NCBI GenBank assembly: GCA_028448965.1
Contig: JAONQT010000001.1
Coordinates: 1-60,528 of the forward strand
Source of the DNA: Nitrosopumilus sp.
GTDB lineage: Archaea > Thermoproteota > Nitrososphaeria > Nitrososphaerales > Nitrosopumilaceae
DNA length: 60,528 bases
Direction of reading: 5' to 3'
The notes under the pieces are model-generated. The model saw only the letters and a list, made by a program, of their open reading frames with translations. It did not search any database and was not told where the DNA came from. The position numbers and the translations under genes are program-made. Below, piece by piece: positions 35,001 through 55,796 of this stretch; position 1 is the first letter of the stretch; every line of letters starts with the position of its first letter.

Positions 35001-35197
35001 AATGAAATTTTAGATACTGGTTGTTTAAAGGAGATGATTCATTATAATTTTACAAGTTTACCAATTCAAGTTAAGTTCAAAAAAATAAGTAATGTTAGAA
35101 AAATAATATCAATTATTCAACCTAAATTACAAAATTAGGTGTAAAAAAACCACTCAGAAGGATGAAAAATAAGCTAGTCAAAGACTAATAAGGTAAT

Positions 35198-35216
35198 GTA
35201 CCGTACCATACTGTAT
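35198..35216 (+). promoter_or_regulatory. palindromic operator-like element upstream of the wHTH regulator
   Basis: GTACCGTACCATACTGTAT between CTAATAAG and ATG 35218; 17/19 identical to the element at radA. Confidence 0.7.
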
Positions 35217-35217
35217 A

Positions 35218-35562
35218 ATGAAAGCAAGACTAACATATGTGCCACTAGAAGTGGCAGATCAATTTGAAGACTTTATCATAGAAAGAGAAGAGCAAGTTTT
35301 AGATGCAGTAAAAGCAAGAACCAGAGATTTCAGCACGTTATCTTTGTTAAAGTTGTTATACCAACTTAAAGGAAATCCAATGACATTTTCAAATTTATAT
35401 TCAAAATCAAAAATTAGAATGAAAAGATCATTTTTGAATTATTTACATTTGTGTGTAAATTATAATTTCATTGAAAAAGAAGCTGTAGGGCCAAATGTAA
35501 TCTATACAATTACAGACAAAGGAAGAGTAATGCTAAATTTATTCATGCAAAAAAGTAATTAG
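35218..35562 (+). CDS. winged helix-turn-helix transcriptional regulator
   Basis: PMTFSNL...SFLNYL...YTITDKG wHTH signature; short N-terminal extension. Confidence 0.85.
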   Translation: MKARLTYVPLEVADQFEDFIIEREEQVLDAVKARTRDFSTLSLLKLLYQLKGNPMTFSNLYSKSKIRMKRSFLNYLHLCVNYNFIEKEAVGPNVIYTITDKGRVMLNLFMQKSN

Positions 35563-35583
35563 ATAGAGTATTCGAAGCACACT

Positions 35584-36309
35584 GTGGAAAAAGAATTTCC
35601 AGAAGCAGAAATATTTTCAATTAAAAAAATGGAACTAAAAAATCCAATAATTTTTGCAGGGTTTGTTGGAGCAGGACTTGTAGGCCCTCTTTCAATCAAT
35701 CATATAATTACAGAATTAAAAATGACAGAAATAGCAGTTATGAGATCAAAGTACCTCCCACCATCAACGGTATTTATGAGAGGGAGATTACGTCATCCTT
35801 TTAGATTCTATGCAAATCCAGAAGGAACAGTTTGTGCAATAATTTGTGAAATTACATTAAGAATGGAAGGATTGTATTCATTAGTATCATCAATTTTAGA
35901 CTGGGCAGAAAACAACGGATCTAAAGAAATTGTAATTTTAGATGGAGTTGCAAGTACTGAACATGATGATAAAGCATACTGTGCAGCAGAAGAAGATTTG
36001 GTCAGAACAATGGCAGACAAAGATATTAGTTTAATTCCTCAAGGATTCATCACTGGGATTCCAGGAGGAATATTAAATGAATGCCTAGTAAGAGAAATTC
36101 AAGGATTAACATTATTAGCAAAAGCAAACAAAACAGAGCCAGATGCAGGCGCAGCTGCAACCCTAATTCATGCATTAAACAGATTTTATGAAATGGAAAT
36201 TGATACATCAGAACTTCAAAAGGAAAAAGACAGAATTCATTCAGAATTTAGCGAATTGTCTCAAAAATATGTAGAACACAGAGAAGAAATATCTGGAATG
36301 TATATGTGA
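35584..36309 (+). CDS. proteasome assembly chaperone (PAC2) family protein
   Basis: GFVGAGLVG, HPFRFY, G.PGG.L, PD..AA, C-terminal GMYM (HbYX). Confidence 0.9.
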   Translation: MEKEFPEAEIFSIKKMELKNPIIFAGFVGAGLVGPLSINHIITELKMTEIAVMRSKYLPPSTVFMRGRLRHPFRFYANPEGTVCAIICEITLRMEGLYSLVSSILDWAENNGSKEIVILDGVASTEHDDKAYCAAEEDLVRTMADKDISLIPQGFITGIPGGILNECLVREIQGLTLLAKANKTEPDAGAAATLIHALNRFYEMEIDTSELQKEKDRIHSEFSELSQKYVEHREEISGMYM

Positions 36310-54389: not shown

Positions 54390-55535
54390 TTAGAAGTCAT
54401 CAGATGTAATATTTGCACCGTGATCTTCCACTATGTCTACTTCAGGTTCTACAGTAGCCTTAACTTCAGGTTCTACAGTAGCCTTAACTTCAGGTTCTAC
54501 AGTAGCCTTAATTTTTGGCTCCTTAGTTTTTTTAGTTGCTTTTTTTGCAGTCTTTTTTGGTTTTTTCTCTGCCTCTTCAGGATCAATAACTCCTGCTTCA
54601 CCTAAAGCAAAGATTACTTCTTCTTCAGGATGATGAGGACTATCTACCATTCGAGCAATTCGTTTCTTACCAGATTTCTTAAAGTAGATTCTGTAAGTAC
54701 TTGTATGTGCAACTACATTTCCACCAATAGGTCTAGTTGGATCTCCAAAGAAAACATCAGGAGATGCCATAACTTGATTGGTTGCAATTGCAGCACAATC
54801 ATATGTTTCTGCAATTCTAACCAACAAATGAACAAAATGATTTAGTTTTTGTTGTCTAACAGATAATGTTCCTCTTCCAAGGTATTCAGCACGGAATAAT
54901 CCAACTGCAGAATCTGCAACAATTAATTTAACATTGTTTTCTTCAATTATAGCACCAGCTTCTTCAAGAATTAAAACTTGATGTGCGCTGTTATATGCAC
55001 GTGCCACAATAATATTATCCAAAACTTTTTCTGGATCCATATCATGAGCTTGTGCAATTTGTACAATCCTTTCAGGTCTAAAAGTACCTTCAGTATCGAT
55101 ATACAAAACACCACCTTCAAGTCCACCTTCTTCTTTACTTTTTTGAACCATTACAGACATCGTATGAGCAAATTGTGTTTTACCACAACCAAATTCTCCA
55201 TAGACTTCTGTTAAGGCTCTAGTTTCAATACCACCATCAAATAATGTATCAAGACAATTTGTACCAGTTGTAATTTTGCCAATACTTTGTCGAGTTTTAT
55301 AGAGTTCACTTGCACTAATGAAATCTTTAGCAAGTAAGCCACCTTCAACTAAATGTTTTCGGGCTTTATTGACAATTTTTTCAGCTGTGTCCTTTTCCAT
55401 TCCAGTTATTTCTGCAATATCAACAGGACCTCTAACGATGAGATCCATGACGTTGTGGACACCTGCATCGGATAATTTTCTTGTAGTTACAGGACCTACG
55501 CCCTCTAAACTATCTAATCTTAAATCTTCAACCAT
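54390..55535 (-). CDS. radA: DNA repair and recombination protein RadA with low-complexity C-terminal tail
   Basis: TEVYGEFGCGKTQ, YIDTEGTFRPERI, ARAYNS, GRGTL..RQQ, TNQV, DSP. Confidence 0.97.
   Translation of the reverse strand: MVEDLRLDSLEGVGPVTTRKLSDAGVHNVMDLIVRGPVDIAEITGMEKDTAEKIVNKARKHLVEGGLLAKDFISASELYKTRQSIGKITTGTNCLDTLFDGGIETRALTEVYGEFGCGKTQFAHTMSVMVQKSKEEGGLEGGVLYIDTEGTFRPERIVQIAQAHDMDPEKVLDNIIVARAYNSAHQVLILEEAGAIIEENNVKLIVADSAVGLFRAEYLGRGTLSVRQQKLNHFVHLLVRIAETYDCAAIATNQVMASPDVFFGDPTRPIGGNVVAHTSTYRIYFKKSGKKRIARMVDSPHHPEEEVIFALGEAGVIDPEEAEKKPKKTAKKATKKTKEPKIKATVEPEVKATVEPEVKATVEPEVDIVEDHGANITSDDF
54439..54510 (-). repeat. three perfect copies of a 24-bp tandem repeat (KATVEPEV) in the RadA tail
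   Basis: ACTTCAGGTTCTACAGTAGCCTTA at 54439, 54463 and 54487. Confidence 0.95.
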
Positions 55536-55552
55536 ACCGTATAGTACGGTAC
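55534..55552 (-). promoter_or_regulatory. palindromic operator-like element overlapping the radA start
   Basis: Minus strand GTACCGTACTATACGGTAT(G); perfect TACCGTA-N3-TACGGTA; TTATAAAG lies 5 nt upstream. Confidence 0.75.
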
Positions 55553-55613
55553 CAGTACTTTATAAGAGTATTGTTGTAAAAACTAATTGTAAATCGTAAT
55601 AATGATTAAAACA

Positions 55614-55796
55614 CTAACGTCGTTTTCTTCTTTGACCAGGTTTGTTTTGTCCTGGATATCTACCTAAAGCAAATCGTTTTTTGAAATTACTTTTATTTGC
55701 AACACTAGAACTATCGCCTACAATTTTTCTACCTTCTACTTTAGGAGTTTGTCCTCTTACTTTACCTGCTTTAGTAAGTGATCCGTGAGTTGCCAT
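55614..55796 (-). CDS. rps30e: 30S ribosomal protein S30e
   Basis: HGSLTKAGKVRGQTPKV. Confidence 0.95.
   Translation of the reverse strand: MATHGSLTKAGKVRGQTPKVEGRKIVGDSSSVANKSNFKKRFALGRYPGQNKPGQRRKRR

Follow-up and report, generated by a model that had tools for sequence, protein, structure and literature searches.

How is the recombinase gene radA controlled in archaea that have no LexA? To our knowledge this is still largely an open question. It concerns the ammonia-oxidising archaea, some of the most abundant cells in the sea, for whose radA we found no operator or regulator described in the literature. The locus considered here lies in a 60,528-nt stretch of Nitrosopumilus sp. DNA (contig JAONQT010000001.1; hereafter the window), from a partial assembly of 652,961 bases that is 54% complete (G000). 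A first-pass annotation, made from the letters alone, had noticed that radA and the gene of a 114-aa winged-helix (wHTH) protein share a palindromic element, and had proposed a two-gene circuit laid out like lexA and recA. Our analysis identifies a likely repressor site, which would give a first testable handle on radA control in LexA-less marine archaea, with a 17-bp site, five promoters as targets, two candidate proteins that can be named and lineages in which losses have occurred naturally.

Both elements lie where they had first been placed, with a TATA-like octamer 5 nt ahead in each case, and they differ from each other at two of 19 positions (Table 1). The TACNGTA cores of the wHTH operator occupy 35199–35205 and 35209–35215. 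No third copy had been noticed in the window; the perfect dyad does occur only twice, but the wHTH promoter carries in addition a one-mismatch box that keeps the 10-bp register of the pair, and such a box is also present in genomes G003 and G012. The promoters of wHTH orthologues have a similar TATA-like octamer at the same spacing. Only 21 nt separate the wHTH gene from the PAC2 gene, and the two are likely to be co-transcribed; one RNA-library contig spans the junction, which is no proof of a single transcript. The TATA spacing suggests leaderless transcripts at the wHTH gene and radA. RNA-library contigs from four runs cover the wHTH gene, PAC2 and radA and neither operator, and the three listed pieces over the wHTH gene begin at 35228–35242; since contigs give neither starts nor levels, they lend leaderless transcription no support.

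Table 1. Features of the wHTH–PAC2 and radA loci in the window
Feature	Position	Strand	Basis or remark
TATA-like octamer, wHTH–PAC2 promoter	35185..35192	+	sequence; putative function
Third box, degenerate (one mismatch)	35189..35195	+	over the TATA octamer, 10 bp before box 1
Putative wHTH operator, two palindromic boxes, 10-bp pitch	35198..35216	+	ends 1 nt before ATG
wHTH protein gene, 114 aa, HTH_45/ArnR1-like	35218..35562	+	candidate reader of the full pair
PAC2-family proteasome assembly chaperone gene	35584..36309	+	PF09754, E 2e-39
TATA-like octamer, radA promoter	55558..55565	-	sequence; putative function
Putative radA operator, two boxes, 10-bp pitch	55534..55552	-	second box over ATG
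radA, recombinase, 381 aa	54390..55535	-	NF003301, 495 bits (cut-off 259); PF08423

The element is rare. A search of the window allowing up to three mismatches returned three matches against 0.04 expected, and none of 100 shuffles reached three. In the whole of G000 the 17-nt dyad TACNGTA-N3-TACNGTA occurs without mismatch exactly twice, at the wHTH gene and at radA. A weight matrix, whose training sites include these two, scored them at 29.0 and 24.8 bits, the best score in 20 resampled genomes being 16.4. A TACNGTA box lies within 35 nt of an ORF start at these two of 753 starts and at no others; a wider half-site regulon in G000 was considered and rejected. GTAC was also considered as a methylation site and rejected, its depletion being mild (0.74) and similar to that of GATC (0.75).

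Among 40 genomes of the family Nitrosopumilaceae the perfect dyad is present in 36, and 35 of these carry two to five copies; the total is 116, against 12 for a reversed control pattern. At the level of the genus it was found in 45 of 46 genomes. It is absent from three genomes of other families, and none of 17 radA-like loci of other families has even one box, exact or of the type found in family f3 (below). This supports the element as a promoter motif conserved throughout the family. A position table of 85 sites makes each half-site a 9-bp palindrome of its own, RTACNGTAY. Some lineages have a 4-nt spacer instead of 3 nt, and a search with that spacer in five genomes gained only loci already known.

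The surroundings were read for part of the dyad sites, and on these rests the grouping into five loci at which the read sites mostly fall: radA, the wHTH–PAC2 operon, an operon that begins with a 35-aa ORF, a 62-aa zinc-ribbon gene and the gene of a 128-aa RHH protein. The two-gene circuit first proposed is therefore too small, at least five loci having been found. The 35-aa ORF is of zinc-finger type (CxxC/HxxxH) and is followed by a 440-aa coiled-coil gene; the fourth site lies in the gap between the 62-aa gene and, usually, trpE (by eye); and the site at the RHH gene is usually one mismatch away from the perfect dyad. At four of the five loci, including radA and the wHTH gene as first proposed, the pair stands after the TATA box and before the start codon, and at the zinc-ribbon gene it stands on the opposite side of the TATA box. 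With up to one mismatch, G012 has six matches and G003 five, all at or overlapping the five loci. The 440-aa, 35-aa and 62-aa proteins match no family above cut-off. The two zinc proteins were found almost only in Nitrosopumilaceae, and the 35-aa ORF was not found in 14 genomes of other families. The element is real, and the putative operator and mini-regulon are apparently undescribed: the literature searched, which included few subscription papers and no supplements, does not describe the element, and the accessible part of PMC7554672 does not mention it.

Two side observations concern the third locus. The 35-aa ORF (L095:1521-1625, + strand; CxxC...HxxxH) recurs family-wide, starts about 4 nt behind the pair and is short enough for gene callers to miss. 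The 440-aa protein encoded downstream has a Lys-rich N-terminus.

The 114-aa protein matches no Pfam or NCBIfam family at E 0.01. Against HTH_45 (PF14947) it scores 14.2 bits (cut-off 25.5), 32 of 50 homologues match that family at E 0.05, and its automatic Atlas cluster name is 'ArnR1-like'. The predicted model has a confident winged helix at about residues 40–111 behind a low-confidence N-terminus of 37 residues, and it matches AspA, HlyU and MarR/ArsR-type folds (best E 6e-4), in line with the wHTH assignment of the first-pass annotation. The recognition-helix region is kept among homologues only 30% identical. An RHH domain at the N-terminus was considered and discarded (profile comparison probability 1.3% over 21 columns; a deeper alignment showed no RHH pattern).

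The wHTH gene was found in 34 of the 40 family genomes and 42 of the 46 of the genus, and 30 of 33 of its own promoters have both boxes perfect (24 with the 3-nt and six with the 4-nt spacer). The six family genomes without it have 0, 0, 0, 0, 1 and 2 perfect pairs. We compared 48 radA promoters (the 40-genome set, G000 and seven genus genomes picked partly by their wHTH state), of which 35 have a perfect pair: 33 of 37 where the wHTH gene is intact, against two of the 11 genomes that lack it or carry a diverged or broken copy. In the 40-genome set the figures are 29 of 33 and one of seven. The Fisher p of 2e-5 for this association is overstated, because related genomes are not independent. 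On a quick RadA tree the losses fall on about seven branches, four of which have an intact close relative that keeps the pair; the sister comparisons G006/G030, G001/G025, G144/G135 and G003+G027/G165 all go in the predicted direction, and a sign test on these four alone gives p 0.06. GC-rich genomes that have the wHTH gene (G037, G006, G001 and G144) retain the radA pair. At the promoter of the RHH gene, too, a pair with up to two mismatches is present in 12 of 12 wHTH-intact genomes and three of 10 others. The wHTH gene and the second box are thus lost together.

There are exceptions on both sides. The radA pair is perfect in G004, whose wHTH gene has no start codon and is frameshifted, and in the draft G174, where no wHTH gene was found; it is broken in G014, G036, G031 and G002, in which the gene is present. 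Drafts of 100 to 210 contigs make up six of the 11 genomes without an intact wHTH gene, and some losses may be assembly gaps, because the adjoining PAC2 orthologue also was not found in G017, G030, G039, G174 and G175. In G011, G033 and G135 the last few wHTH-like codons seem to remain before PAC2, which indicates deletion.

In G135 the wHTH gene (L092:10925-11900) is replaced by about 900 nt between direct repeats of its last codons. The RHH gene of the same genome (L280) is cut by a short tandem duplication; its first copy, of about 57 codons, keeps the RHH domain and the second copy is broken. This damage to the two genes may be real decay or an assembly error.

The first-pass annotation had tied the pair to the wHTH protein. 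This tie is supported for the pair at radA, but single boxes and some perfect pairs outlast the protein. A wHTH dimer on two boxes 10 bp apart could by itself repress its own gene, radA and the other loci; a 10-bp pitch fits a winged-helix dimer, and the joint losses at radA and the RHH gene, the two boxes at its own promoters and the conserved recognition-helix region all agree with this. Single boxes left behind would then be slow decay or a basal promoter feature. However, the TATA-side box is still exact at radA in eight of nine wHTH-less or diverged genomes, and one exact box is kept at the zinc-ribbon gene in eight of eight wHTH-less genomes, with diverged flanks; at the 35-aa gene an exact box within 45 nt is present in five of six. 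Nor is the box a general promoter feature, because no other of the 753 ORF starts in G000 has one within 35 nt. G135 (a single contig from which the wHTH gene is deleted; four pairs, reversed control three), G165 (wHTH 40% identical; six pairs) and G030 (two pairs; no wHTH gene found) also retain perfect pairs or have them at new loci. A similar box, moreover, precedes RHH orthologues of another family, f3, in which no close wHTH orthologue was found. We therefore consider it unlikely that the wHTH protein acts alone.

The RHH protein was found in all 22 family genomes searched besides G000, including every wHTH-less one; its gene is absent from the G000 assembly, which is 54% complete. When its N-terminal domain was put through a wide structure search, the 19 highest rows were all RHH proteins (Z 5.8 to 4.1), the best match having Z 5.8 and rmsd 4.8 over 57 aligned residues and TraM having Z 5.5 and rmsd 2.1 over 48; the fold is a predicted one, and Z values below 8 are not decisive alone. 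By sequence the TraM match is weak (E 0.26), and Foldseek with the model returned nothing at E 0.001. The C-terminal part, barely covered by the wide structure search, has a conserved Cys/His pattern, which may resemble SWIM.

All 80 of the closest RHH-gene promoters have one perfect box and, 3 nt away, a partly degenerate partner. In f3, a one-mismatch GTACNGTAC box follows the TATA box in all five close orthologues, against a background of 1.3% per window, and a second GTAC stands just before the start; these five promoters are kin rather than independent cases. Among distant homologues, four of 26 have TACNGTA without mismatch in the 80 nt read, against a background of 2% per window (p about 0.002). 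It follows that a related box accompanies the RHH gene beyond the range of the close wHTH orthologues. The recognition strand is nearly unchanged where the second box decays. An attempt to predict a complex between the RHH and wHTH proteins scored 0.00 in two runs, which is evidence for neither side. In two f3 genomes, G063 (L396/L081) and G054 (L401/L114), distant RHH and wHTH homologues are divergently transcribed neighbours.

The RHH protein might therefore be the sole reader, with one dimer on each palindrome and two bound cooperatively to a pair, as with aCcr1; the wHTH gene would then be a target, and a lineage that relaxes the response would lose it and the tight control of radA together. 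Its presence in every family genome searched, the element at its own promoter and the related boxes before homologues outside the family favour this, and palindromic single boxes with 3- or 4-nt spacers suit two separate dimers. But the regular decay of the second box at radA and the RHH gene upon wHTH loss is left unexplained, and the f3 genomes have close RHH orthologues but no radA box. We rate this reading on a par with that of the wHTH protein alone.

A third factor could instead read the element, for instance one of the small zinc proteins (the 35-aa finger or the 62-aa ribbon), a TFB paralogue or another regulator, the wHTH and RHH genes being mere targets. Both zinc proteins stand behind or beside the element and are nearly restricted to the family; G030 has a pair before a TFIIB-family gene, and G165 has pairs before three related zinc-ribbon genes. 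However, the 35-aa gene was not found in four of 13 family genomes searched and the 62-aa gene in five of 19, some genomes without one or the other keep perfect pairs, and the zinc proteins explain neither the coupling to wHTH loss nor the boxes before RHH homologues elsewhere; a third factor is quite improbable. That no protein is involved, and the element is a hairpin or cruciform, a chance match or a low-complexity repeat, can practically be dismissed: it is palindromic with a 5-bp period, and similar simple repeats occur in unrelated virus contigs, but its promoter position is fixed, its excess over the control is 10-fold, 76 distinct sites show no pairing co-variation (positions 5/15 complementary in 45%, 37% expected; positions 9/11 in 25%, 38% expected), and Rfam returned for five loci nothing but a distant tRNA match.

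We tentatively favour a composite operator shared by the wHTH and RHH proteins. The two 9-bp palindromes behind the TATA box and ahead of the start codon would form a composite repressor site; the 114-aa wHTH protein would occupy both boxes, the 128-aa RHH protein would bind a single box beside the TATA box, and both would keep transcription from initiating at radA and at the genes that encode them. Repression is proposed because protein covering about -20 to +1 would stand in the way of RNA polymerase. A signal would then release the repressor. Release cannot be self-cleavage of the LexA type, because the wHTH protein has no protease domain, and none of the Pfam matches of its 50 homologues is a peptidase family. 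The likeliest sensors, both at a guess, are the zinc-type Cys/His domain carried by the RHH protein and proteasomal turnover, the latter proposed because PAC2 is in the wHTH operon.

The nearest known layout is the aCcr system of Sulfolobales, with a different box sequence. According to the accessible parts of the publications, RHH repressors of Sulfolobales bind 9-bp palindromes, one to three of them, that follow the TATA box and precede the start codon (PMC9976878, PMC9976892), aCcr proteins bind the radA, gins and orc1-2 promoters in vitro (PMC13199686), and the tfb2 promoter is occupied (bioRxiv 10.64898/2026.09.06.749720). As far as these parts go, aCcr1, aCcr2 and aCcr3 resemble the present case in 9-bp boxes built of GTA and TAC between TATA box and start codon, here with an RHH candidate reader; in their targets, the radA, gins, orc1-2 and tfb-paralogue promoters there and gins-mcm, Cdc6-like and TFIIB-family pairs in single genomes here; and in virus-encoded homologues of the RHH protein. 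By the same sources they differ in the box (the aCcr1 box has a GTA-N-TAC core, AGTATTA, against GTAC-N-GTAC or TAC-N-GTA here) and in the protein, which has about 59 aa there and 128 aa with a C-terminal Cys/His domain here. A further difference is the winged-helix partner, which here tracks the second box. In our data cdvA is not among the annotated sites carrying the pair.

LexA itself consists of a winged-helix domain and a C-terminal self-cleaving S24 protease domain. The lexA/recA layout first proposed holds in that the same dyad operator covers the promoters of the recombinase and of the winged-helix regulator itself, and extra copies precede genes of mobile-DNA type (Panacea antitoxin, TnpB and Cdc6-like); it does not hold in that the wHTH protein has no S24 protease domain, and hence no self-cleavage, and that there are only four to six sites per genome, with radA the sole recurrent repair gene found. 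A cell-cycle circuit would fit the layout as well as an SOS-like one. The LexA/RecA regulon is summarised in the accessible part of PMC2556686, which also gives for Halobacterium radA1 an 11-bp motif, TTTCACTTTCA, that forms a direct repeat ahead of the TATA box, and shows induction by UV. From what is given there, that motif is likewise conserved, common to radA and a few other promoters and without a known binder, but its sequence is unrelated and its place is upstream of the TATA box. Sta1 of Sulfolobus solfataricus, in the part of PMC2175319 available, activates the radA paralogue sso0777 and needs TTATT, CANGNA and TTATT motifs; on that account it too is an archaeal regulator at a radA-family promoter in a DNA-damage context, whereas the element here has none of these motifs and sits behind the TATA box of radA itself. 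CCTF1 of Sulfolobales, to judge from the accessible part of PMC13736083, is an ArsR-family protein with an AT-rich palindrome and is tied to PAN; it is alike as a small winged-helix regulator linked to proteasome genes (PAN there, PAC2 here) and different in having no motif in common with the present element.

As the signal we lean, without much confidence, to DNA damage or replication stress; cell-cycle timing is a serious possibility, and a signal of any other kind is rather unlikely. For damage we count radA as target and the single-genome sites before a Panacea antitoxin gene, a TnpB gene and a Cdc6-like gene. For the cell cycle we count that no other repair gene recurs (up to one mismatch, G012 and G003), the presence of PAC2 and of a long coiled coil and, in single genomes, the pairs at gins-mcm and a TFIIB-family gene. 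Our literature search found no expression data from damage-treated cells. If the damage role is true, the response has converged on the SOS layout; if the cell-cycle role is true, this is the first cell-cycle-type regulon in the lineage. The widest reading would be a LexA-independent switch, in which an RHH protein with a zinc-type sensor and a winged-helix co-repressor hold radA and a small cassette off from one operator until damage or the cell cycle releases them, with mobile genes plugging in and a viral RHH copy steering the host; this we find doubtful.

Several genomes have pairs of their own. In G165 (L248, L281, L282) perfect pairs lie behind the TATA box and ahead of the start of three related zinc-ribbon genes, TFB-like by eye and, for L248, without a Pfam match; in G030 (L050) one lies likewise before a TFIIB-family gene. 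A perfect pair stands behind a TATA box in the divergent region between rfc and gins-mcm of G135 (L085; G135:C1:671588), 389 nt before the GINS start, with apparent inserted DNA between. Seven further loci (L103, L021, L253, L087, L047, L094 and L001), several of them apparently mobile DNA, have extra pairs in single genomes; their neighbours are a Cdc6-like gene, Panacea/DarG-like antitoxin genes, TnpB, a 43-aa RHH-like ORF, a 339-aa ORF without assigned function and a P-loop NTPase gene. A metagenome scan returned one weak locus.

Two virus contigs (L406:3001-3369 and L407:3001-3369) encode, inside operons, copies of the host 128-aa RHH protein that are 73–76% identical to it and recall the viral homologues of aCcr1. 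Two others (L408:2486-2869 and L409:2387-2749) have distant homologues of the 114-aa wHTH protein, likewise inside operons and with no upstream boxes. The pair occurs in none of these four records. A scan of viruses gave 25 stretches with a pair, several of them coding or simple repeats and none with the order TATA box, pair and start before a recognisable target. In three related AT-rich virus contigs (L291, L301 and L307), two perfect pairs lie 31 nt apart beside a TATA-like sequence.

Around radA itself, the C-terminal tail of the protein (window 54390-54580, - strand) comprises 60 aa, is Lys-rich and acidic, contains three copies of an 8-residue repeat and differs in length between relatives. 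Just upstream of the radA promoter, at about 55614-55787 of the window (- strand), lies a small basic ORF, shorter than the 80-aa limit of the ORF list, that by eye resembles ribosomal protein S30e.
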